A stretch of 64,000 bases of DNA from Clostridium thermobutyricum (GTDB taxonomy: Bacteria; Bacillota; Clostridia; Ch29): NCBI GenBank assembly GCA_016842005.1, contig JAENYD010000009.1, forward strand, positions 20,315-84,314. The letters run 5' to 3'. Below the pieces are notes generated by a model. That model was not told the origin of the DNA and did no database searches. It saw only the letters and a program-made list of their open reading frames with translations. Positions 1,895 to 60,828 of this stretch are shown here, one piece after another. Made by a program: the position numbers and the translations under genes. Each line of letters begins with the position of its first letter. Within the stretch, counting starts at the first letter, position 1.

Positions 1895-3229
1895 ATGACC
1901 AGGAAAATGAGCAAGGAAGACGTTTTAAAAAAGGCAAAGGAGCTGGATGTACAGTTTATTCACCTGCAGTTCACCGACATACTGGGGGTAATGAAGAATG
2001 TGGCCATAACTATTGAACAGCTGGATAAGGCCCTGAACAACGAGATAATGTTTGACGGTTCTTCCATTGACGGCTTTGTACGAATAGAAGAATCCGACAT
2101 GTACCTGAGACCCGACCCGTCAACATTCATGGTATATCCATGGGCTGCCCCGGTTAAAGAAGCAAGGCTCATATGCGATGTATACGACAAGGACAACAAG
2201 CCCTTCACAGGATGTCCCAGAAATATCCTGAAGCAAGTGCTGAAAGAAGCGAAAGATATGGGTTTCATAATGAATGCAGGTCCGGAATGCGAATTTTTCC
2301 TCTTCCAGACCGATGAAAAAGGGAACCCATCCCTGGAAACCCAGGATAATGCGGGATACTTTGACCTTGCCCCGGTGGACCTCGGGGAAAGCGCCCGGAG
2401 GGATATGGTGTTAACCCTGAAGCAAATGGGCTTTGAAATAGAGGCATCCCACCATGAAGTAGCCCCTGGCCAGCATGAGATTGATTTCAAATATGACGAT
2501 GCGCTGACCACCGCCGACAACATCATGACCTTCAAGATGACAGTAAGGACTATTGCCCAGCGGCACGGTCTGCATGCCACATTTATGCCCAAACCTATTT
2601 TCGGCATTAATGGGTCGGGGATGCACACCAACCTGTCCCTGGCCACCCTAGACGGGAAAAATGCCTTTTACGATGAAAAGGGAGAGCTGCAACTATCTGA
2701 TATAGCCTTCCACTTCCTTGGTGGAGTGCTTAAATATGCCAGGGCCTTTGCCGCCATTACCAATCCCACCGTAAATTCGTACAAAAGGCTGGTGCCGGGA
2801 TATGAAGCCCCTGTTTACATCGCATGGTCGGCTTCCAATAGGAGCCCCCTTGTAAGGATACCGGCAAAAAGGGGAAATTCCACCAGGCTTGAGCTGAGAA
2901 ACCCGGACCCCTCAGCAAACCCCTACCTTGCCATGGCGGTTATCCTGAAAGCGGGTCTTGACGGCATAAAGAACAAAATCCAGCCCCCTGCCCCTGTGAA
3001 CAGCAACATTTACCACATGAACGAGCTGGATAGAGAGGAAAAGGGTATACAGAGCCTTCCCGGCAGCCTGTTTGAGGCACTCAAGGAACTGTCAGGTTGC
3101 GAACTCATCAAATCGGCCCTGGGACCCCACATTTATAACCGGTTTGTTGAAGCAGCCATGATAGAGTGGAATGAATACAGGACCAGAGTAACCAAATGGG
3201 AAATAGAGAAATATCTCACCAAGTTCTAG
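1895..3229 (+). CDS. glnA: Glutamine synthetase type I
   Basis: 444-aa ORF with AAAGGAGG RBS. Motifs typical of GSI ([30 protein letters not shown]). Confidence 0.95.
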
Positions 3230-3240
3230 TATAAACAGGA

Positions 3241-3356
3241 TTCTATGCTTCAGGTGGAGTGTTAACCCCATCTGAAGCATAGAATATGTTATCCCGGGAC
3301 GTAGCGCCCCTTATCTGCCACCTAAGAGGATGGATGTATTGGTGGCGGTAGTCATC
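3241..3356 (+). repeat. Structured repeat element, copy A (long hairpin plus conserved GTTATCC..GACGTAGCGCC..GGCGGTAGTCATC blocks)
   Basis: Perfect 13-bp outer stem (ttctatgcttcag / ctgaagcatagaa) with an inner stem. Homologous to the copies at 25131 and 41088. Confidence 0.6.
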
Positions 3357-3370
3357 TGATAAATCATAAA

Positions 3371-3412
3371 AAAAGCCCTGATTATTATATTCCCCTTCAC
3401 CAGGGCTTTTTT
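3371..3412. terminator. Bidirectional intrinsic terminator between glnA and the AEC gene
   Basis: aaaaaaaGCCCTG...CAGGGCttttttt. Confidence 0.7.
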
Positions 3413-3446
3413 TATTTCCCGCAGCATTACCGGCTTCTATTTCCCT

Positions 3447-4391
3447 CTAAATCATGCTCAACAGTATTCCGTACAGCGGTATAACAAACATACTTACCAG
3501 GGTTGAGACACTGAACCCCACCGCTGCATATTCACAATCCCCTTCATATGCCTGTGCAACAATGGTACTCTGAGCCATAACCGGCATAGACGCTTCCATT
3601 ACAAATACCCTGGTCATAAGCTGGGGCGCGGAAAAATAGTATGACAGACCAAGGACCAGTAAAGGACAGAACAAAAATCTCCCTATCAGCAGTACGGTTA
3701 CATCTGTGCTCAGCCTGATTTTTCCGGGCCCTATACTGTAAATTATGATGCCTATAAATATCATGGACAGTGGAGTGGTCATGCTCCCTATGTACCTTGC
3801 AGTATCCATGACAAACTCCGGTGGCCGGATCTCCGATACAATAAAAACAATAGCAACCAAAAATCCCATTAATGGAGGCGAAAAGATTTTTCTTAATGTT
3901 TCAGCAACAGATATTGTTTTCGCCTTTTCCCTGCTGCTACGTCGAATAGAATATATGCCGATGGTCCAGAACAAGGTAGTGTTAGCAATATAATAAAGCA
4001 GTACCAAAGGAACACTTTCATCTCCGAACAACGCCAGATTTACAGGCAATCCTATAAAAACAGTATTGGAAAAAACAAACATGGCCTGGAAAATACCCCG
4101 CCTCTCAGGCTCCATCTTCAGTAACTTTGCCAGAATTACAGCAATCCCGTAGGAGAGAATCATGCCTGCAAGGGGAATAATCAGTCCTCTGCCTGAACTC
4201 ACCAAATTCTCTTTGCTCAGGGTATTAAGAATATTCCAGAACATGAAAACAGGCAGTGAAACGTAAAGGATTAATCTCGAAAATAATTCGGATGCATTCC
4301 GGTCAAACCACTTTTTATAGGATAAAAAATAACCTGTGCCAATCATCAGTGCAATAGTCAATATGCTCTGTACCGCATCTGTTGCAGCCAC
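3447..4391 (-). CDS. AEC family (auxin efflux carrier / malate permease-like) transporter
   Basis: 314-aa polytopic membrane ORF with an AEC-like sequence. Confidence 0.7.
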   Translation of the reverse strand: MAATDAVQSILTIALMIGTGYFLSYKKWFDRNASELFSRLILYVSLPVFMFWNILNTLSKENLVSSGRGLIIPLAGMILSYGIAVILAKLLKMEPERRGIFQAMFVFSNTVFIGLPVNLALFGDESVPLVLLYYIANTTLFWTIGIYSIRRSSREKAKTISVAETLRKIFSPPLMGFLVAIVFIVSEIRPPEFVMDTARYIGSMTTPLSMIFIGIIIYSIGPGKIRLSTDVTVLLIGRFLFCPLLVLGLSYYFSAPQLMTRVFVMEASMPVMAQSTIVAQAYEGDCEYAAVGFSVSTLVSMFVIPLYGILLSMI

Positions 4392-4483
4392 TATTCAGTC
4401 CCCTTCCTGTAAACTAATCTAAAATATACTTGTTCACCACTTCGATATATCTATAATAATACCATAAATGTCAAGAGCAAAAA

Positions 4484-4556
4484 TTGTCAAAACTGTCAAG
4501 GGGACGGTTCTTCTGACAACGTTGTCAGAAGAACCGTCCCCTTGACAATCCCCTTG
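4484..4556. repeat. Long perfect palindromic repeat (ggggacggttcttctgacaacgttgtcagaagaaccgtcccc plus flanks)
   Basis: Stem of about 27 bp. Second copy at 7262-7365. Confidence 0.8.
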
Positions 4557-4564
4557 ATATCTTT

Positions 4565-5815
4565 CTATATCCTGTATACCTTGCCGCCCAGGCTTTGGAA
4601 TTTCTTCTCAATATCGGTATAACCCCTATCGATATGGTACACGTCAGTTATCTCGGTTCTCCCCCGGGCCGCCAGCCCCGCAAGAATAAGGGCTGCACCC
4701 GCCCGCAGGTCTGTAGCCTTCACCGGGGCACCGGTAAGCTCAGGAATACCCTGCACCACGGCGCTTCTGCCATCAATCTTTATATTTGCCCCCATTCTCC
4801 TTAATTCGTTCACGTGCATAAATCTATTATCAAAAACAGTTTCTATTATTACGCTTGTTCCCCGCGCCACACTCATCAGGGCCATCATCTGCGCCTGCAT
4901 ATCCGTAGGGAAGCCTGCATAAGGCAAAGTTTTAATGTCAACGGCCTTTACCCTTTCGGGTGCATATACCCTGAGCCCGTTTTCCACTTCCTGTATTATT
5001 ACCCCTGCTTCCTTCAGTTTTGCTATAACCGACATAAGGTGATTTATGACAACGTTTTCCACTATGATATCTCCCCTGGTTATAGCGGCAGCAACCATGT
5101 AAGTACCCGCCTCAACCCTGTCGGGAATTACTGTATGAGTGCACCCTTTAAGTTCTTTTACCCCGTCAATCTTTACGGTATCAGTACCTGCACCTTTAAC
5201 GCAGCCACCCATCTTATTTATAAAGGTTGCCAGGTCCACTATTTCCGGTTCCTCGGCAGCATTCTCTATAACGGTTCTACCCTCCGCCAGAGCGGCTGCC
5301 ATCATTATATTCTCGGTGGCGCCCACGCTGGGAAAATCAAGATATACCCTGTCTCCCTTAAGCTTTTTGGCACTGGCCTCAATATACCCGTGCCCCATTG
5401 TTATCTCAGCCCCCAGGGCACTAAAGCCTTTAAGGTGCAGGTCGATAGGACGGGTTCCTATGGCACATCCTCCCGGGAATGATATCCTTGCCTTGCCCAT
5501 CCGTGCCAGTAATGGACCCAGAACTAAAAAAGAAGCTCTCATTCGTCTCACCAGCTCATAGGGAGCTTCGTAATTATCTATATTTCTGGAGTTGACTTCC
5601 ATCCGCATATTGGACAATTTCTTGATATCCGCACCTAATGAAACCAGTACCTCACTCATCACTTCAACATCATTGAGAAAGGGTATGTCTTCAAGTATAC
5701 ATTTCTGACCCGAAAGCAAACTGGCTGCTATCACAGGGAGTACTGCATTCTTTGCGCCACTTATCCTGACAGTCCCCCTAAGCGGAGGACTGGATTCTAC
5801 AACTATCTTAGACAC
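4565..5815 (-). CDS. murA: UDP-N-acetylglucosamine 1-carboxyvinyltransferase
   Basis: 416 aa with an N-terminal [11 protein letters not shown] motif. Sits downstream of the atp operon, as murAA does in Bacillus. Confidence 0.95.
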
Positions 5816-5843
5816 CTTCTATCCTCCCGTCCTGCTGAATATA

Positions 5844-6629
5844 CTAGTATTCCAGAGATATTACCGGTGAACCAATCCATATATATGTCTTCCCTTCATA
5901 CGAATTATACCTCATCGCAATGTTGATATTTACCTTATCCTCTCCTATTTTCAGGTAATCTGCGATTTTTGGGGTGTAGCCGGATACACTTATCATATCA
6001 TCATAAATCGCATTTTCAACTTCCCGGGCATGGATTCTTTCCATTATGGCACTTATTATTCCGGTGGCCTGACTGGCCGGGACCCTGTCCTCATAGCTCC
6101 CCACTATACAGGATGTGACCCTTGCACCCTTGATAAAATGCTCAACCGCTTTCTCTGCCTTCTTGCTTATCCCGGCTATATCTTCATAATCCCCGTTAAC
6201 CGAGATATCCATGACAATATTGGTCTCAACACCTTCCTCCCCCTCCAGGTTGTTGAAATTCACCGAATGCCCTATTATAACCAGATTATGTCCCCTATCA
6301 TTATCTCCTGTCAGGGTAACCTGATTGTAATCCCCTCCAAACTGCTCATTCCGTTCACAATTGTTTGCATCCATTCCCATTTCATCAGCCAGGACTTTTA
6401 CTATGCCTGTTAACTCCTCTTTCCCCAGAAACATATCCTGGGTGGTGGAATAAACGTTAATGTTGGATTCTACCGCTTTTGCCCCCGATGCCTGAAAGGC
6501 TTCAACAATCACATTGCCACCCCTGTAATAATTAAAGGCAAAACTGGCAGGAAACAGGATGAATGCAGCCGTCAGCAGCATTACCAACAGAATAAACCCG
6601 TAAAGATAATAAATTTTTTTCACGAACAA
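5844..6629 (-). CDS. YwmB-like (DUF1779) membrane-anchored protein
   Basis: 261 aa with an N-terminal TM helix. Placement between atpC and murA matches ywmB. The family assignment is from memory. Confidence 0.4.
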   Translation of the reverse strand: MFVKKIYYLYGFILLVMLLTAAFILFPASFAFNYYRGGNVIVEAFQASGAKAVESNINVYSTTQDMFLGKEELTGIVKVLADEMGMDANNCERNEQFGGDYNQVTLTGDNDRGHNLVIIGHSVNFNNLEGEEGVETNIVMDISVNGDYEDIAGISKKAEKAVEHFIKGARVTSCIVGSYEDRVPASQATGIISAIMERIHAREVENAIYDDMISVSGYTPKIADYLKIGEDKVNINIAMRYNSYEGKTYIWIGSPVISLEY

Positions 6630-6816
6630 TACCTCCCGGTAACAATCTTTTCTGGATTATTTCCATATTCCGGGAGCAGTATACCCGGATATTCCGTACA
6701 AACTTATTATTTCTAAAGCAATCCGGGCTATATACGCATGATAATCATGTAATACTTTCCTCAGCGGGCGTCTAATTATGAATTTTACTGCTTATTTAAA
6801 AAATTGTCAATATTTT

Positions 6817-7239
6817 TCATCCATTTCTGAGAGTGTTGGCGACCCGTATACGGGTTAAAGCCCTCTGAAGAGAAAGCCTTGCCCTCAATACGTCTATGTC
6901 GTCCCTGTCCTGCTGCCCCAGTCTCTCCTCAGCCCTTTCCCGGGCCCTTTGGGCCCTGTCTACGTCAATCTCTCCAGGCCATTCAGCCGCATCCACCAGA
7001 ATAGTGACTTCTTCGGGCATCACTTCCATCAATCCCTGGGCAACAGAGGCTTTCCTGCTTTCATCCTCCCCCGTTCTTATTGTAAGGACACCGGGAACCA
7101 GCGGTGTAACCAGGGGACTATGGTCATACAAAATACCCAGATAGCCTTCCCAACCTTTTACCGTAACACCTGCCACATCTCCCGAAAAAAACGTTTTCTC
7201 CGGCGTCAGAACCCGCAGTTTAATATTCTTCAAGACCAA
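6817..7239 (-). CDS. atpC: F1 ATP synthase epsilon subunit; TTG start
   Basis: 140-aa ORF at the end of the atp operon. The start codon reads TTG, with GGAGGGAGAG upstream. Confidence 0.85.
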   Translation of the reverse strand: MVLKNIKLRVLTPEKTFFSGDVAGVTVKGWEGYLGILYDHSPLVTPLVPGVLTIRTGEDESRKASVAQGLMEVMPEEVTILVDAAEWPGEIDVDRAQRARERAEERLGQQDRDDIDVLRARLSLQRALTRIRVANTLRNG

Positions 7240-7261
7240 AAACTCTCCCTCCGACTATCAG

Positions 7262-7365
7262 ACCTACCAAGGGATTGTCAGGGGGACGGTTCTTCTGACA
7301 ACATTGTCAGAAGAACCGTCCCCCTGACATCGAAGAACCGTCCCCCTGACATCCCCCTGACAGCC
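7262..7365. repeat. Palindromic repeat copy with a partially duplicated arm, inserted between atpD and atpC
   Basis: Same core as the 4500 copy. The tail cgaagaaccgtccccctgaca reiterates one arm. Confidence 0.8.
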
Positions 7366-8766
<1,401 letters not shown>

Positions 8767-55556: not shown

Positions 55557-55832
55557 CTGTCACACCTCCTCGTATACTAATACTAATTCTCCACCGGGTA
55601 TACAATTCCTGCCGCAGTCAGGTAATATTTTTTATGCAGTCCGGGCAGCGGGCACGGGAACGGTTCCGGTATCCGCAATGTCAGAATACGTTCGCCTGAC
55701 AGTCCCGGCAACCCGGCAGCCAGCCACATCTGTTTCGCAGTTGTCAAAAGAAGGGGTTTGCCGGTATTCAGGTGCAAGGTATGCCGCTGCTCTGTACTCC
55801 ACCTGTAAAGTATTATATAATTTATATTAATC

Positions 55833-56201
55833 ATGCATACAGGAGGTCTCGATATGATAGTATCCCATCTGAAGGATGTAAAAGGCGTCAGGATTGAAAA
55901 TCCCAATATCAAAGGGGTTGTAAAAAGAGTACTGGTTTCCCCGAAGGAAGGATGGGAAGGCTACGTGATGCGGGTATTCGAACTGGAGGAAGGGGGATAC
56001 TCGCCCAGGCACAGCCACCCATGGCCCCATATTACTTATATCCTTAAAGGGGAAGGCATCCTGCATCTCGACGGGAAGGATTACGAAGTGGAAGAAGGAT
56101 CCTTTGCATTTGTACCCCCGGACAGGGTGCATACATTCTCCAACAGGGGCAGCGGTAAATTTCTGTTCATATGCATAGTTCCTGAAGAAGGAGACGTGTA
56201 G
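55833..56201 (+). CDS. Cupin domain protein
   Basis: 122 aa with a cupin His-rich motif (SPRHSHPWPH...H). AGGAGG RBS. Confidence 0.7.
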   Translation: MHTGGLDMIVSHLKDVKGVRIENPNIKGVVKRVLVSPKEGWEGYVMRVFELEEGGYSPRHSHPWPHITYILKGEGILHLDGKDYEVEEGSFAFVPPDRVHTFSNRGSGKFLFICIVPEEGDV

Positions 56202-56208
56202 GACGCGC

Positions 56209-56253
56209 AAAGCAGCCCTGTATCCGATGGACGGATACAGGGCTGCTTTATCC
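56209..56253. terminator. Bidirectional terminator hairpin (15-bp perfect stem) between the cupin and SLH genes
   Basis: GCAGCCCTGTATCCGatggaCGGATACAGGGCTGCttta. Confidence 0.6.
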
Positions 56254-56271: not shown

Positions 56272-58137
56272 TTACCTGTTGGTAATAATTATGCTGTCGG
56301 CTATGAACACGCCCAGCTCCGAATGGCCTATGACAATGAGCCTGTCTCCCTCGTCTATGTGTCTAAGATACTTTTTGTCTCCGTCACTGTCCATGATCCT
56401 GGTATCGTCATTGGTATTGATCTGCTTCAATATATAGGTATTTGTGGATGTATCCAGCACCTTCAGGGTTACGACATTAACATCGGTGTTAACGTATTCC
56501 ACAGTACCGATTATCTCATTCTTGGCGACCACCGAATTTGCTTCTATGCTCACTATTTCATCGCTCTCTATCTCTACGTCCACTTCGTAGTCCAGCCGCA
56601 GGTCGTATATGCCTGCTGTCTTGCCGTCTATCTCAACAGACACATCCAGGGCTATTGTATAGGTCTCGGTTTCTCCGTCTTCATTCTCTATGGTTAACTG
56701 ATGGGGTCTGGCAATCAACAGTGAATAAATGGTTCCTTCTATCTCCTTGTCAACGCTTTCCGCTTCTATACGTGTTACCACGCCATACTCGGTTGTTATC
56801 TCCACTTCGTCCCCTTTCCTGAGGTCCTCCAGTCCCCTGTCCTTGCCGTCCCGTTCCACCTCCACATCTTCATCCACAGTATACTCTGTCTCCTGGCTGC
56901 CTGTCTTCAGTATCAGTATCAGCCTGTTTTCAGTCCTGAAGCCCTGGAATATTCCAGCGACAGTCTTGGTCTTGCTTTCAGCCTCGATTTGCACCGCATA
57001 ATTGTTCCGGATGGATGCAGTGACCCTGTCTCCAGATTTGAGGTATTCGAAGAAAACGGTGTTTCCATCCAGGGTAATAACCGCGCTGTCTTTCACCCTG
57101 TAGGTATGTTTGTCTCCCTCTTCATCCTCAATTGTTATAAGGCTGTCGGGGGTCATATCAAGGGCGCTGATTATAATCCCCTCTATTTCCTCTTCAGTGC
57201 TGAAAACTTCAATGGAAACTATCTTACCGTCTCTGATGCCCAGAACCGCCTGCTGCCCGTCCGAAACACCGCTGAGTGAGGCTGTAGCATCGTCCAGTTT
57301 GACAGTGGCATCCGGGGCTACTTCATATATGTCCAGACTTCCATCCTGAAGGGAAAACTTTATGCTTGTCCTGCTGGTTCCCCTGATTACCTCTTCTATG
57401 ACGCCCTCCACTTCGGTTACGCCCGCTGCGGGTAGTTCTCCTATCACATCCAGTGATGTGGCCAGCATCTTGGCTATGCCCGCCCGGGTGATCTCATTAT
57501 TGGGGTTGAACTTCCCTTCGGTATCGCCGCTTATAATCTCCCTGTCAACAAGGACCTTGATATAACCCCTGGACCAGGGGGATATCAGTTCGTTATCCTT
57601 GAAGTTGAGGATAATAGTCCCCAGGGCCTCTGCCTCCTGTTCCAGCCCCAGGGCCCTGGCGAAATACACTGCCACCTGATACCTTTTAGCATTGGTCGCT
57701 GTCCCGTCACTCTTTACAAAGGTAGCCAGTTCCTCCTCCTGGATTATACCCTTTTCCAGGGCATACGCTATATATTTCTTTGCCCATACGGGAATCCTGC
57801 TGCCGTCCATTGCAGTACCGTATTTTTCTATGTATGTGTTAATGTTCAGGTCACTGTCATTGTCTATCCCTGTCATTTTCGCAAGGGATACTATAACTTC
57901 CATATTCGTTACGGGGTTGTCCGGTTTAAAGGTGGCATCCTGGTAACCGCTGATGAGCCCTGCCTGATATGCCTTCAATACGTATTCGTCGTACCACTTT
58001 CCGTCTCCCACATCGGTAAACACCCTGGTCGCATGGGCGGACGCCGGTAAACCTGCGGCAATCATAATTACAATCAATAATGCAGACAGTATATAAATAA
58101 TCCTGTTCCTTGACAAACTTTTCATCCTCCCCACCAA
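56272..58137 (-). CDS. SLH-domain surface protein with about five tandem beta-rich repeats of about 72 aa
   Basis: Signal peptide, then three SLH domains, then repeated modules (...TYxVxxDxxIxLDG...IEAES). The start may be the internal MKSLSRN. Confidence 0.8.
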   Translation of the reverse strand: MVGRMKSLSRNRIIYILSALLIVIMIAAGLPASAHATRVFTDVGDGKWYDEYVLKAYQAGLISGYQDATFKPDNPVTNMEVIVSLAKMTGIDNDSDLNINTYIEKYGTAMDGSRIPVWAKKYIAYALEKGIIQEEELATFVKSDGTATNAKRYQVAVYFARALGLEQEAEALGTIILNFKDNELISPWSRGYIKVLVDREIISGDTEGKFNPNNEITRAGIAKMLATSLDVIGELPAAGVTEVEGVIEEVIRGTSRTSIKFSLQDGSLDIYEVAPDATVKLDDATASLSGVSDGQQAVLGIRDGKIVSIEVFSTEEEIEGIIISALDMTPDSLITIEDEEGDKHTYRVKDSAVITLDGNTVFFEYLKSGDRVTASIRNNYAVQIEAESKTKTVAGIFQGFRTENRLILILKTGSQETEYTVDEDVEVERDGKDRGLEDLRKGDEVEITTEYGVVTRIEAESVDKEIEGTIYSLLIARPHQLTIENEDGETETYTIALDVSVEIDGKTAGIYDLRLDYEVDVEIESDEIVSIEANSVVAKNEIIGTVEYVNTDVNVVTLKVLDTSTNTYILKQINTNDDTRIMDSDGDKKYLRHIDEGDRLIVIGHSELGVFIADSIIITNR

Positions 58138-58306
58138 TAATTTCTTTCACAGGCACATATTCATATATTCTTTATATAGCGGATAATTCCTCCTGAAAAT
58201 GTATATTTCCTCCTGTGATTTTCTGTTTTCGTGCTGCATCTTATGGGACAAATTTTCTCCTTTTTGTGGTAAAATATATAAGAGATTAAATACCGGGGGT
58301 GAGCCT

Positions 58307-58753
58307 GTGGAAGACAGCAGAATACTCAGCCTTATATTGGATAAAATAACAAATATAGAAAAAAACCAGCAAAAACTGGAACAGGATATGGCTGAGATGA
58401 AGGCCGAAGTAACCAGCCTCAAGACAGAAATGGCCGGCATGAAGACCGAAATAGCCGAAATGAAAGCCGAAATGACCTGCATGAAGACCGAGATTGCCGA
58501 CATGAAGGCAGAAATGGCCGGCATGAAGACCGAGATTGCCGACATGAAGACCGAAATGGCCGATATGAAGACCGAAATAACCGGCATAAAAACCGAGATT
58601 GCCAGTATGAAGACAGAAATGTCCGACATGAAGAAAACTGTCGATTTCATCAGTGCAAATCAAAAAACCGTTATGTATTATATAGTGCATATAGACAAGG
58701 CATTCAACGAGCAGTCCAAGAGGATTGAAGAGCTGGAGCAGAAAATATGCTAA
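58307..58753 (+). CDS. Met-rich heptad-repeat coiled-coil protein (about 12 repeats of MKTEIAD/MKAEMAG); GTG start
   Basis: In-frame 21-nt tandem repeats. Codon pattern K at e, E at g, and Met/Ile at a/d. Flanked by terminators. Confidence 0.6.
   Translation: MEDSRILSLILDKITNIEKNQQKLEQDMAEMKAEVTSLKTEMAGMKTEIAEMKAEMTCMKTEIADMKAEMAGMKTEIADMKTEMADMKTEITGIKTEIASMKTEMSDMKKTVDFISANQKTVMYYIVHIDKAFNEQSKRIEELEQKIC
58388..58636 (+). repeat. About 12 tandem copies of a 21-bp repeat (atgaagaccgagattgccgac variants)
   Basis: Visible periodicity. In-frame within the coiled-coil gene. Generates shadow ORFs on both strands. Confidence 0.85.
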
Positions 58754-58781
58754 AAACCCCGCCTCTAAGGCGGGATTTTTA
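58754..58781. terminator. Bidirectional terminator between the coiled-coil gene and the SLH gene
   Basis: aaaaaCCCCGCCtctaaGGCGGGattttt. Confidence 0.65.
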
Positions 58782-58788
58782 ATGAGAA

Positions 58789-60828
58789 TTAACCGTCTAT
58801 TTTCACAACCTTGCATCCATCGAATTCAAGCCGGACCTCCATCCCCTGGTCAATATCCTCCAGGTCCGCTTCTTCCCCGTCCAGCTCCACTTCAACGTCT
58901 TCATCCAGGTCATAGGTCTCGGTGTCACCGTACAGCTCCAGCTTTATTTCCATGTCATCCTCATCCACCCGGACCACTTCTCCTGCTACACTGTCCAGTT
59001 CCGCATATACTGTCTCGACAACCGTTCTGTTTATTATCCTGACCTCCACTTCCATGCCCAGCTTCAGGTCGTCGAAATCCGCAGCATCATCATCCACATA
59101 TATATCCGCATCTTCCAGGCAGTAGTCTTCTTCGTCCCCGTCATCCTCTACAGTGATTTCCTCGTCGTCTCCGTCTATGGCTGTGATGACCCCGTCAGCC
59201 CCGCTTACAGTGTTCTCCGCCCTTATCCTGAGCGCCAGGCCGGCCCTGTACCGGACTTCCACCTCCATGTTCACCGCCAGGTCATCAAAACCGGCATCTT
59301 CACCGTCAATCTCTATATCCGTATCCTGGTCCACCGCCAGTGTCTTATAAGCGCTGCCGTATTTCACAGTAATTTCGTCTTCATCTATATCGTAAATCCT
59401 GCCTTCCACTTCCCTGATGTCCTCTGTCTCCGCATCAATCTCCAGGGCCAGGGTGCCTTCCACCGCCATCTCCACTGCCATACCGCTTTCCAGGTCGGCC
59501 AGCGCAGCATCTTCCCCGTCCAGGGTAATCTCCGTATCATCGTCAACATTGTAGGTTTTTACCTGACCACTGTCCAGTTTTATGGTTATTCCTTTCACAC
59601 TGCCCAGGGTTATGGCATATACGGTGCCTTCCACTTCCGCAGTCTCTTCCTCTTCGTCTTCCCTGTCTCCTTCAGCTTTTATCGACATGACCCTGTTATA
59701 GTTATCCACCTTCAGCCTTACTTCATCTCCCACCCGGATATCTTCCAGATCCGCTTCTTCTCCGTTCACCTCAATATCCGCGGTGGATTTGACCGTAAAA
59801 ATGAATATGGCAGTACCCGATTTAACCGTTATTTCCCTGTCATCCACATCCAGGGCCTTGACCTCTCCCCGGAAATCCTCAATCAGCTTGTCGGTTTCCC
59901 TGTCCTTCAGTTCTATGAATACGACCCTGCCTTCATCATTCAGCAGTATCTCTACCATGTCTCCTTCTTTCAGCCTGCCGAAGTCGTAATACTTACCGTC
60001 ATAGTAGACCTGGATCCCTTCAACGGTCCTGTACTCAATCCCGTCACCGTCCACATCCAGGACCAGCTCGTTATTGCCCGTATTTATGTCAACTACCCTG
60101 CCTTCAACATCCCTCTCGTCCGCATCGCTGTCCACCTTGCCGTCAATCCTGTCAATCAGGACAGCCATTTCAGCCCTGGTCACCGCCCTGTTGGGATTGA
60201 ACGTCCCGTCGGCATTGCCCACCATCAGGCCCAGGTCGCTTATCACGTACACATACCCCACCGCTCCCACAGGTATTGCCGGATAGTCCTTGAACTCCAG
60301 CTCTTCATCCATGTGGGCCTCGGCTTCGTCCTCGTACCCCAGGGCCCTTACCATGTATTTGGCCACTTCCCACCGTTTGGCAGGCTCGTTGGGATTGAAG
60401 TACATCAGATCCACTTCATCCAGTATCCCTTTTTCAGCCGCAACTTTAACATAACCCCATGCCCACTGGTCTACTTTTTTTCCCTTATAGCCGGAGGGCA
60501 GATTACTGGTCCTCAGGGCCTTTTCTTCCCAGCCCATCACCCTCAGGGCCATAATTACCGCTTCCAGTTTTGTAACCGAACGCATGGGCCTGAAAGTTTT
60601 GTCCCCGTATCCTTTGATGAGTCCCTTCACCGACATCTTTTCCATGGCATGTTTGGCCCACGGGACCTCGTCAAGGTCTTTCAGACCGCTGAATACCGCC
60701 AGGGTTATCTGTTTCTGCAGTCCCGGAGGCAGACCTCCCCCCGTCTTCCATTTGGGAGCTGCATATCCCGTAACAGAGACCCCAAAGATCATAACAACGA
60801 TCAGTGATACCGCCAGTAGCCTTTTCAT
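58789..60828 (-). CDS. SLH-domain surface protein with about eight tandem acidic beta-rich repeats of about 65 aa
   Basis: Signal peptide, SLH domains, and repeats containing LDGEEADLEDI-like loops. Confidence 0.8.
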   Translation of the reverse strand: MKRLLAVSLIVVMIFGVSVTGYAAPKWKTGGGLPPGLQKQITLAVFSGLKDLDEVPWAKHAMEKMSVKGLIKGYGDKTFRPMRSVTKLEAVIMALRVMGWEEKALRTSNLPSGYKGKKVDQWAWGYVKVAAEKGILDEVDLMYFNPNEPAKRWEVAKYMVRALGYEDEAEAHMDEELEFKDYPAIPVGAVGYVYVISDLGLMVGNADGTFNPNRAVTRAEMAVLIDRIDGKVDSDADERDVEGRVVDINTGNNELVLDVDGDGIEYRTVEGIQVYYDGKYYDFGRLKEGDMVEILLNDEGRVVFIELKDRETDKLIEDFRGEVKALDVDDREITVKSGTAIFIFTVKSTADIEVNGEEADLEDIRVGDEVRLKVDNYNRVMSIKAEGDREDEEEETAEVEGTVYAITLGSVKGITIKLDSGQVKTYNVDDDTEITLDGEDAALADLESGMAVEMAVEGTLALEIDAETEDIREVEGRIYDIDEDEITVKYGSAYKTLAVDQDTDIEIDGEDAGFDDLAVNMEVEVRYRAGLALRIRAENTVSGADGVITAIDGDDEEITVEDDGDEEDYCLEDADIYVDDDAADFDDLKLGMEVEVRIINRTVVETVYAELDSVAGEVVRVDEDDMEIKLELYGDTETYDLDEDVEVELDGEEADLEDIDQGMEVRLEFDGCKVVKIDG

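Follow-up and report, generated by a model that had tools for sequence, protein, structure and literature searches.

A Probable Lineage-Specific Gene for a Methionine-Cored Coiled-Coil Protein Between Two SLH-Domain Genes of Clostridium thermobutyricum

Results

The Small Gene and Its Control Elements

The window analysed here is a stretch of 64,000 nucleotides from Clostridium thermobutyricum (GenBank assembly GCA_016842005.1, contig JAENYD010000009.1, positions 20,315 to 84,314). A small open reading frame (ORF) encoding 148 amino acids lies on its plus strand between two SLH genes, as the preliminary description had stated; the products of these genes each contain three SLH domains, and the ORF is transcribed opposite to both of them. 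The features of the locus are as follows.

56272..58137, minus strand, divergent SLH-domain protein (context only), three Pfam SLH matches, E = 1.7e-26
58195..58771, no strand, lineage-specific segment of about 560 bp with promoter and ORF, from blastn of L020 against the window
58267..58275, plus strand, candidate extended -10 promoter element TGGTAAAAT, inferred from reading by eye
58295..58303, plus strand, Shine-Dalgarno-like GGGGGTGAG, from the sequence
58307..58753, plus strand, small ORF of 148 aa with GTG start and TAA stop, from the ORF listing and translation
58307..58387, plus strand, non-repeat N-terminal segment MEDSRILSLILDKITNIEKNQQKLEQD, residues 1-27, already in heptad register
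58388..58639, plus strand, array of 12 imperfect 21-bp units, corresponding to 12 heptads, residues 28-111
58640..58750, plus strand, non-repeat C-terminal tail VDFISANQKTVMYYIVHIDKAFNEQSKRIEELEQKIC, residues 112-148 (37 aa), in heptad phase
58751..58781, no strand, bidirectional intrinsic-terminator hairpin with 14-nt arms (93% complementary), an A-run before and a T-run after
58789..60828, minus strand, convergent SLH-domain protein of 679 aa (context only), three Pfam SLH matches, E = 4.9e-27

The candidate -10 element lies about 32 nt 5' of the start codon and was not reported by a scan for the two-hexamer consensus. The GGGGG core of the Shine-Dalgarno-like sequence ends 7 nt 5' of the GTG, and this sequence favours the GTG at 58307 over the in-frame upstream ATG at 58199. 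The gene had been credited with its own terminators, which are really the one bidirectional hairpin, common to the small gene and the convergent SLH gene, whose end lies at 58789. A hairpin is also found 3' of the stop codon of the SLH gene in three relatives without the small gene, namely L020, which is the closest, L032, and L033. No Rfam family or tRNA was found anywhere in the window, and an S-box/SAM riboswitch, looked for upstream of the small ORF given its Met richness, was not found either.

The codon usage of the small ORF is that of the host genes, with a GC3 of 0.592 against 0.59 expected and the same preferences for ATA, ACC and GCC. A foreign origin had come into consideration through the low GC content of the ORF (42.7% compared with 49.1%) and was rejected, since GC3 and codon preferences match the host; the low GC content is explained by the amino-acid composition.

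The 148-aa product was not found in a collection of 15 billion proteins, in which 10 candidate products of the plus strand (9 distinct starts) and three ORF products of the minus strand were tried, although the collection does include neighbours of it that are encoded on the same public contig. The small gene was thus probably left uncalled by automatic pipelines, and it is probably an unannotated gene of the kind that pipelines miss.

Neighbouring Genes and Related Genomes

The real start of the divergent SLH protein is probably the ATG at 58125, which would give a product beginning MKSLSRN and carrying a signal peptide. The convergent SLH protein contains DUF5666-like beta-barrel repeats according to Pfam, and orthologues of it were found. 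Nine neighbouring ORFs scanned against Pfam were of housekeeping or efflux type (Rho, GlpX, transaldolase, TetR, OEP, AcrB) or gave no match, and none was phage-like.

The two SLH genes are kept adjacent in five related genomes (L020, L032, L033, L034, and L035), and in none of the five does such an ORF lie between the SLH orthologues. When L020 was compared with the window by blastn, its positions 2865-5006 aligned to 60913-58772 and its positions 5074-7478 to 58194-55792, so that about 67 bp in L020 stand in place of 58195..58771. Since all five relatives keep the SLH pair without the small gene, the promoter-plus-ORF segment of about 560 bp is specific to this lineage. No convincing terminal repeats or integration signature were seen around it. 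A 20-nt imperfect duplication is located at its left edge.

The Repeat Array and the Heptad Register

The array consists of 12 consecutive heptads of the form [M/I]-A-x-M-K-T-E, and its consensus ATGGCCGACATGAAGACCGAA encodes MADMKTE. Position a is occupied by Met (6), Ile (5) or Val (1), position b by Ala, Thr or Ser, position d by Met (10), Leu (1) or Ile (1), and position f by Thr or Ala, while position c is variable. Lys stands at e in 12 of the 12 heptads and Glu at g in 11 of the 12. The 16 core Met residues, 10 at d and six at a, bear out the earlier account of an ORF of about 12 heptads with a Met core and a canonical coiled-coil charge pattern. The heptad register itself is unbroken from L7 to I147, which means that the protein has 20 heptads and not the 12 of the array.

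Tandem Repeats Finder placed the 21-bp array at 58421-58634 (10.2 copies, score 225), far beyond chance, together with super-periods of 42 and 63 bp. The tandem repeats had been described as perfect, which they are not: the units match by 73% at period 21 and by 81% at period 42, and exact direct repeats reach at most 29 bp, at a spacing of 42 bp. The 42-bp super-period arises from the alternation of Met and Ile at position a.

Departures from the array consensus fall on the three codon positions as 13/8/23. In heptads 1-11 the e and g positions show synonymous variation only (AAG/AAA and GAA/GAG), and position a varies among Met, Ile, and Val only. Over the whole protein, 38 of 41 a/d positions are hydrophobic compared with 7 of 101 positions elsewhere, and the non-repeat flanks show the same distribution (14/17 at a/d and 8/43 elsewhere, Fisher p = 7e-6). 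The substitution pattern of the array is that of a translated coiled coil.

Met makes up 17 of the 148 residues (11.5%), whereas in the long ORFs of the window its share averages 2.7% and does not exceed 6%. The protein has a mass of 17 kDa and a pI of 4.9, and it contains one His, two Cys, no Trp, and no Pro. AlphaFold2 predicted the whole product as one continuous helix, residues 2-147, with a pLDDT of 96.5. The N-terminus MEDSRILSLILDKITNIEKNQ shows no signal-peptide features, no transmembrane (TM) segment was found (the maximum Kyte-Doolittle 19-residue window is 0.54), and Pfam gave no SLH domain match.

Homologues and the Heptad-Array Class

Scans of the 148-aa protein against Pfam, NCBIfam, and PHROGs gave generic coiled-coil matches only and no curated family, in agreement with the first reading, which had not recognised one. 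Two Pfam matches just over their cut-offs, CENP-F_leu_zip and DivIC, were rejected as compositional. An exhaustive HMMER search returned 3866 matches with E <= 1e-3; all of the 150 listed were centred on the heptad region, and no self-like or full-length orthologue was among these listed matches. The genome, metagenome, and viral scans gave array-level relatives only. No orthologue carrying MYYIVHID or NIEKNQQK was found in the genome and metagenome scans, no protein in 5.8 billion clusters shared three 5-residue words with the tail, and the best E-value of the tail against the homologues was 0.012 (phmmer, 42-sequence database).

In its N-terminal motif and heptad array the small protein resembles a large uncurated class with the layout N-helix, h-x-x-h-K-T-[ED] array, helical tail, which is found in Bacillota and other phyla and includes Desulforamulus putei P0010, the Lachnospiraceae "MTDREILELLLKEITDMKTDMSDIK..." proteins P0009 and P0015, and Acetatifactor P0004. 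The members are 100-210 aa long and have the N-terminal motif M-x-D-x-x-h-L-x-L-I-L-x-x-I, an h-x-x-h-K-[TA]-[ED] array, often with Met at d, a helical tail, and no other domain. Like them, the small protein has an h-x-x-h-K-[TAS]-[ED] array, no other domain, and an isolated gene without conserved neighbours. Its short tail, in contrast, is unique; the Lachnospiraceae/Oscillospiraceae subgroup of the class has a conserved segment after the array, I-x-N-x4-I-x2-IAEGHxDLxRKL, which is absent from the small protein.

The similarity of the homologues to the small protein is confined to the heptad array and a short motif at the N-terminus. Against an N-terminal profile built from 11 class members, the N-terminal segment of the small protein scored 11.3 bits. 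This value was reached by 6 of 2000 shuffles (p ~0.003), but not by any of the 815 other 18-mers of the window that start with M. With modest support, this segment therefore seems to resemble the class motif MTDxExLxLILxEIxxMK, directly before the array. Since the tail is without relatives, membership of the class rests on the array and on this short, weakly significant motif, and the likeness may also reflect convergence of low-complexity coiled coils.

The homologues are encoded by stand-alone genes in unrelated contexts. The gene neighbourhoods of P0010, P0006, P0003, P0004, and the window are all different, and an SLH gene was found in 0 of 5 homologue contexts, so the co-occurrence with SLH genes that had been proposed as a check was not observed. 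Heptad number often differs between near-identical class members. The suspicion that such repeats vary in copy number holds in this wider class, and variation was not observed at the locus itself.

Most of the 70 small matches that contain a heptad array have a V/L core; in 28 of the 70, Met is more frequent at d than any other residue. Met at d recurs in the class, including Met-core arrays in several Clostridia lineages. A literature search gave no papers on "methionine zipper" coiled coils and nothing useful on Met-rich heptads. The class is very large, with thousands of database matches, and neither a Pfam or NCBIfam model nor literature on it was found; many genes would gain an annotation from the structure of a single member together with a screen for its interaction partners.

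Discussion

We consider it rather likely that the ORF is a genuine, lineage-specific, stand-alone gene and that its product is a cytoplasmic 17-kDa single-helix rod in which the core Met residues are equivalent to Leu or Ile. By textbook rules the helices would assemble in parallel and in register, because E(g)-K(e') salt bridges favour the parallel arrangement and penalise the antiparallel one. Rules of the same kind for the a, d, e, and g positions suggest a dimer as the most likely assembly, with a trimer also possible; the dimer is favoured because the hydrophobic stripe is narrow, position a is beta-branched or Met, position d is unbranched, and e and g are fully charged. The outcome would be a homo-oligomeric rod about 21 nm long. 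Since the short non-repeat ends are its only specific surfaces, the rod may serve as a scaffold or adaptor, or as a stalk for oligomerisation or spacing.

Met at d and at half of the a positions would serve as a core residue in the manner of Leu or Ile. A single base change separates the codon ATG from ATA, ATT, CTG or TTG. Repeat homogenisation, through slippage or unequal recombination of the 21/42-bp units, could have spread Met along the array until it was fixed, without selection for a special chemical role. This neutral account is an argument from parsimony, and the recurrence of Met-core arrays in Clostridia would be left unexplained by it.

An alternative that we regard as unlikely is that the locus is not a gene at all and is a 21-bp intergenic DNA minisatellite that is open in several frames by chance. 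Two long reverse-strand ORFs also cross the array, the product is absent from the large public protein collection that holds its neighbours, and the segment is absent in relatives, all of which would fit such a repeat. However, the 64 codons of the non-repeat flanks keep the heptad phase (p = 7e-6), third-position changes are in excess, and the K and E columns of heptads 1-11 vary synonymously only. The host-like codon usage in this frame, the correctly spaced Shine-Dalgarno-like sequence, the terminator directly 3' of the stop codon, and the dozens of similarly built proteins encoded elsewhere also speak for a translated gene. An assignment to a known phage- or holin-associated coiled coil of the XhlA kind, which had been named as a possible outcome of a homology search, is extremely improbable. 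The PHROG matches include phrog_7599 (unknown function, E = 4.8e-12), a minor head protein (7.4e-12), a holin (4.5e-7), and a hemolysin (3.1e-6), and there was one weak match on a viral contig, L031, which is TM-anchored. All the PHROG matches, however, are generic and confined to the heptads, and the small protein is without a TM anchor. The scanned neighbours contain no phage-like gene and no prophage lysis-cassette context, the lineage-specific segment is a single gene without an integration signature, and the tail sequence did not turn up in the viral, genome or metagenome scans.

The position between two SLH genes, with a terminator common with one of them, had suggested a secreted or S-layer-associated adaptor that works with both flanking proteins. 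We give this very little credence. The protein has no signal peptide, TM segment or SLH domain, and its gene is oriented opposite to both SLH genes. Moreover, the five relatives without the small gene have conserved the SLH pair, with its two genes adjacent, and the homologues, in contexts unrelated to this one, are not accompanied by SLH genes. Judged from its sequence, the small protein is most likely cytoplasmic and unlinked to the flanking surface-protein genes, so that the adjacency to S-layer genes would be incidental.

The Met-rich core invites functional readings of another kind, in which the 16 a/d Met residues form a functional thioether ladder that binds Cu+/Ag+ or acts as a reversible, oxidation-sensitive zipper; taken together, these are quite improbable. 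For metal binding, stacked thioether layers in a dimer or trimer core would hold Cu(I)/Ag(I), as a sponge or a chaperone, which we consider very unlikely. It is just as doubtful that such a zipper is related to the TetR-OEP-AcrB efflux genes nearby and to the SLH neighbours with their CusF-like beta-barrels. The evidence that points this way consists of the core Met residues with alternating MxxM and MxxxM spacing, an RND efflux cluster about 2 kb from the small gene, weak CusF_Ec matches in the SLH neighbour and its orthologues, with the JGI label "CusF" on one orthologue, and the precedent of the Met-rich helices of CueO and SilE, which bind Ag+/Cu+ (PMC5008109). SilE and PcoE are periplasmic Ag+/Cu+ "molecular sponges", rich in Met, with their ligands on one helix face, and the i/i+3 and i/i+4 Met spacing is common to them and the small protein (PMC5008109). 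However, SilE has a 20-residue leader and a disordered apo form and needs 10 conserved His in MxxH/HxxM motifs (PMC5008109), whereas the small protein has no leader, a single His, and a predicted stable helix. No MxxH/HxxM motif or Met2His(Trp) site was found in it, and its Met residues are at the a/d core positions, where a stable coiled coil is predicted to bury their side chains. The known Met-based Cu/Ag sites of SilE, PcoE, and CusF are periplasmic, and the small protein is without a signal peptide. The AcrB-OEP-TetR-...-SLH-SLH neighbourhood is retained in the relatives L034 and L035, from which the small gene is missing. The CusF match of the SLH protein in the window is weak (E = 0.011, 16 bits against a cut-off of 27), those of the SLH orthologues are precomputed "faint" matches, and the SLH repeat domains show by eye no conserved Met/His/Trp metal site. 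Class relatives, finally, use V/L, I/M or I/I cores interchangeably.

A redox element would be a rod that is unzipped when core Met is oxidised to the sulfoxide, as an oxidative-stress switch or a Met-based ROS sink that would serve an anaerobe and be reset by Msr enzymes. The oxidation of Met is established general chemistry, and this together with the density of core Met is the sole support for the idea. Against it, neither an msr nor a redox gene is nearby, buried Met is poorly accessible, and class members whose core is V/L show the same build in other respects; we hold the idea to be highly unlikely. Only if the metal or the redox idea were true would the Met core be of consequence; the Met-core arrays of Clostridia would then form a class of cytoplasmic sensors of metal or redox state that had gone unrecognised.

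As a probable cytoplasmic rod with a Leu/Ile-like core, the small protein can be compared with several known coiled coils. ZapB and Lpp are small bacterial all-coiled-coil, homo-oligomeric rods without a globular domain, and the comparison concerns how they work. Of the two, Lpp is secreted as a lipoprotein, and the partners of ZapB are ZapA/FtsZ. The small protein shares neither specific sequence similarity nor a matching context with them, and the Pfam models ZapB and LPP give generic matches to P0049, a class member. In P0049 a V-A-E-L-K-T-D array precedes a globular C-terminal domain. Two further groups of repeat-rich prokaryotic coiled-coil stalks can be compared, the DUF1640/CCDC90-like proteins (PF07798), which are anchored in the membrane, and the stalks of DUF3782 type, whose relatives without the endonuclease include Thermosinus Tcar0761 (PMC4786415). 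In the PF07798 group an [aliphatic]-A-T-K-x-[DE] beta-layer motif marks the stalk start (PMC4786415). Six of the matches of the small protein (P0005, P0028, P0030, P0033, P0038, and P0039) belong to PF07798. Unlike these stalks, the small protein has no TM anchor, ATK beta-layer motif, nonads or nuclease domain, and PF07798 is not among its best 25 Pfam matches, the last of which scored 23 bits against a cut-off of 33.5.

A PDB sequence search with the small protein returned designed coiled coils only, the best matches being sc-apCC3 (9rgy) and GRa3D (6ds9). Their heptads follow E-I-A-A-L-K-x at g-a-b-c-d-e-f. The likeness (E ~3e-4) is one of shared design logic and not of homology, and the class members are near-ideal natural versions of such designs, with lengths that shift by whole heptads between strains. 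Like the designed coils, the small protein has Glu at g, an aliphatic residue at a, Ala at b, an aliphatic residue at d, and Lys at e; unlike them, it is natural, runs over 20 heptads, and has Met instead of Leu at d.

Gene Structure and Heptad Architecture

The small gene and its signals in the window are as follows.

58307-58753, + strand: ORF of 148 aa, GTG start at 58307, TAA stop at 58751-58753 (ORF listing and translation)
58295-58303, + strand: Shine-Dalgarno-like GGGGGTGAG (sequence)
58267-58275, + strand: candidate extended -10-like element TGGTAAAAT (by eye)
58751-58781, both strands: terminator hairpin with 14-nt arms, A-run 5' and T-run 3', terminator score on both strands

The -10-like element was not among the hits of the consensus promoter scan, and the promoter of the small gene is therefore a putative one. 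The hairpin lies directly 3' of the stop codon and also terminates the convergent SLH gene (58789-60828, - strand), so the terminators that the preliminary description had assigned to the small gene as its own are in fact one shared hairpin. A start at the in-frame ATG further upstream (58199) would extend the protein by 36 Cys/Phe-rich residues overlapping the promoter region, and it was rejected because this ATG has no ribosome-binding site. The codon usage follows the pattern of the host genes, including the unusual preference for ATA as the Ile codon, and the GC3 was 0.592 vs 0.59 expected from the amino-acid composition. By its sequence, the small gene bears the signatures of a translated one.

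Tandem Repeats Finder placed a 21-bp array of 10.2 copies at 58421-58634, with a copy match of 73% at period 21 and 81% at period 42, and the longest exact direct repeat in it was 29 bp, spaced 42 bp. The repeats had been called perfect, and this label is therefore wrong. Read as codons, the array gives 12 heptads in residues 28-111.

Table. Residues found at each heptad position of residues 28-111.
a: M6, I5, V1
b: A, T, S
c: variable
d: M10, L1, I1
e: K, 12/12
f: T, A
g: E, 11/12

The departures from the unit consensus numbered 13, 8, and 23 at codon positions 1, 2, and 3. The K column (12/12 heptads) and the E column of heptads 1-11 varied only synonymously, and Met, Ile, and Val were the only residues found at position a. 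Judged by these columns, the variation is the pattern expected for a translated coiled coil and not for drifting DNA.

With a set at residue 7, the a/d register was continuous from L7 to I147 (20 heptads), and 38 of the 41 a/d positions were hydrophobic vs 7/101 elsewhere. The non-repeat flanks were in phase by themselves (14/17 vs 8/43, Fisher p = 7e-6). AlphaFold2, run on the single sequence, predicted one helix of residues 2-147 with a mean pLDDT of 96.5. Met made up 11.5% of the residues, compared to a mean of 2.7% in the long ORFs of the window. The coiled coil described earlier was thus borne out by the unbroken register, the predicted single helix, and the K at e and E at g, as was the Met core, with 10 of the 17 Met at d and 6 at a. 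Neither a signal peptide nor a TM segment was found in the 17-kDa protein (pI 4.9), whose maximum 19-residue Kyte-Doolittle value was 0.54. These results indicated that the product forms one long amphipathic helix, in which the heptads are canonical and continuous, and that it has no targeting signal.

The product was not found in a collection of 15 billion proteins (13 candidate products, both strands), which holds the Rho, transaldolase, TetR, 170-aa hypothetical, and 679-aa SLH proteins of the same 96,929-bp NCBI contig; the small gene was probably never called and probably has no annotation in the public record. The absence of both annotation and expression data would fit a spurious ORF, but this is unlikely in view of the in-phase flanks, the substitution pattern of the array, the codon usage, and the presence of a ribosome-binding site and terminator.

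Relatives of the Protein

A word-indexed protein search gave 42 matches (best E = 8e-24) and an exhaustive HMMER search gave 3866 at E <= 1e-3. The heptad region was the centre of every one of the best 150 of these 3866, and no match listed from either search covered the C-terminal tail. With the tail as the sole query, no protein sharing three 5-mers was found, and scanning genomes, metagenomes, and viral contigs by pattern revealed no orthologue. Many of the matches were proteins of 100-210 aa with a short N-terminal helix (MTDxEKLDLILSEMxGMK and variants), an h-x-x-h-K-[TAS]-[DE] array, and a helical tail. The query N-terminus MEDSRILSLILDKITNIE scored 11.3 bits against the class N-terminal motif profile, which was reached by 6/2000 shuffles and 0/815 window controls. 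The core residues depended on the lineage, with V/L most frequent; Met was the most frequent d residue in 28 of the 70 small array-bearing matches, a count inflated by the word-based search. The genomic contexts of four homologues were mutually unrelated and every gene stood alone, which argues against a link to SLH proteins through the homologues. On these similarities, the query joins a large class of uncharacterised stand-alone heptad-array proteins as a new member with an orphan tail.

The preliminary description did not recognise the family, and Pfam, NCBIfam, and PHROGs scans returned generic coiled-coil models only. A phage or holin protein is hardly credible, the matches in its favour being generic ones. 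The nearest PDB sequences were de novo designed coiled coils, which have the same E-h-A-x-h-K-x plan as the query.

A near-identical Patescibacteria set (L006, L021-L030) had lengths of 143, 150, 157, and 164 aa, in whole-heptad steps, and whole-heptad differences were also found in the near-identical database protein pairs P0004/P0019, P0002/P0027, P0009/P0015, and P0017/P0023. Within the class, the length of the array is therefore labile, a case of natural in-frame variation in the number of 21-bp units. The database proteins P0083, P0095, and P0128 carry near-perfect DMKQEIA/DMKLENAFMKQEIA heptad arrays, but their flanks are quite different and look non-bacterial, which suggests an independent origin of Met-core heptad arrays in unrelated genomes.

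Predicted Coiled-Coil Assembly and the Methionine Core

With E at g and K at e, the g-e' pairs attract each other in a parallel coiled coil, while the g-g' and e-e' pairs repel in an antiparallel one. By these established rules, the query helices would pair in parallel. The narrow hydrophobic stripe, the beta-branched or Met residues at a, and the unbranched Met/Leu at d point to a dimer, and a trimer would be possible. Met is nearly isosteric with Leu and favours the helix, and ATG is one mutation from Ile and Leu codons. Homogenisation of the array could spread a Leu/Ile to Met change through the repeats. Because the sister proteins have V/L, I/M, or I/I cores, Met as a Leu stand-in spread by homogenisation would be the most economical account of the "methionine zipper", a term for which a literature search found nothing. 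A redox switch is very improbable.

The rod would be about 21 nm long, with specific surfaces limited to its short ends, as in a stalk or scaffold. Prokaryotic repeat coiled-coil stalks have been described in DUF3782 endonucleases, in endonuclease-less relatives such as Tcar0761, and in the membrane-anchored DUF1640 family (PMC4786415, the most relevant paper found). The query has the "stalk-only" idea in common with them. Their beta-layer motif is missing from it, as are the TM anchor and the nuclease domain.

The SLH Neighbourhood and Related Genomes

Both flanking genes (56272-58137 and 58789-60828, - strand) encode SLH-domain proteins (Pfam E ~1e-26). On one side they are followed by TetR, OEP, and AcrB genes, and on the other by genes for a hypothetical protein, transaldolase, GlpX, and Rho. 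The closest related locus, L020, was reached through a Rho protein in the same 90% cluster. Its order Rho-GlpX-transaldolase-hypothetical-SLH-SLH is that of the window, at 70-78% DNA identity, with only 73 bp between the SLH genes, and window 58195-58771 has no counterpart in it. Four further relatives (L032, L033, L034, and L035) were found by orthologues of the 679-aa SLH protein (57-64% identity). All preserve the adjacent SLH pair, L034 and L035 still have AcrB-OEP-TetR genes nearby, and no frame of their SLH-SLH spacers (182-388 bp) holds a coiled-coil ORF. Because the small gene is missing from the closest relative and from all more distant ones, the simplest history would be that the window's lineage gained it, at a time remote enough for host-like codon usage. 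The adjacency to the SLH genes is thus incidental.

The secreted or S-layer-associated role proposed earlier found no support: the gene is missing between the SLH pair of five relatives and the query lacks any targeting signal, and an S-layer adaptor is most improbable. Metal binding by the Met core is also very doubtful: the Met are predicted to be buried, the query has a single His and no export signal, and relatives hold the efflux genes but not the small gene.

The adjacency of the two SLH genes is conserved in no fewer than six related genomes of uncultured Bacillota, among them L020 and L032-L035. A conserved motif of ~35 nt, ATATTCTTTAYATAAYGG..AATTCCTGCTA (58165-58200), upstream of the second SLH gene of the pair, is probably its promoter or 5' leader. 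In the 621-aa SLH protein, the ATG at 58125, which follows GGTGGGGAGG, yields MKSLSRNRIIYILSALLIVIMIAAGLPASAHA, a typical signal peptide, and the mechanical start (TTG 58137) is probably wrong. An imperfect 20-nt direct duplication, ATAATTCCTCCTGAAAATGT / ATATTTCCTCCTGTGATTTT (58183-58222), lies where the L020 similarity ends, on the left boundary of the lineage-specific segment; no matching repeat was found at the right edge. The spacer between the SLH genes is a variable region whose content differs per genome, and that of L033 (7251-7576) holds GGGACAGGGGGGACGRTTCTTT elements, repeated and inverted.

The 679-aa SLH protein and its orthologues (P0199, P0203, P0210, P0211) gave weak CusF_Ec/DUF5666 matches, and one orthologue is named "Cu/Ag efflux protein CusF" by JGI. 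Inspection of their repeated beta-barrel modules by eye revealed no conserved Met/His/Trp metal site, and the CusF label therefore looks like a fold-level artefact. The - strand ORFs 55583-55912 and 55827-56210 gave no family match when scanned and are probably spurious; the + strand ORF 55833-56201, which they overlap, aligns to a cupin/AraC_binding gene in L020.
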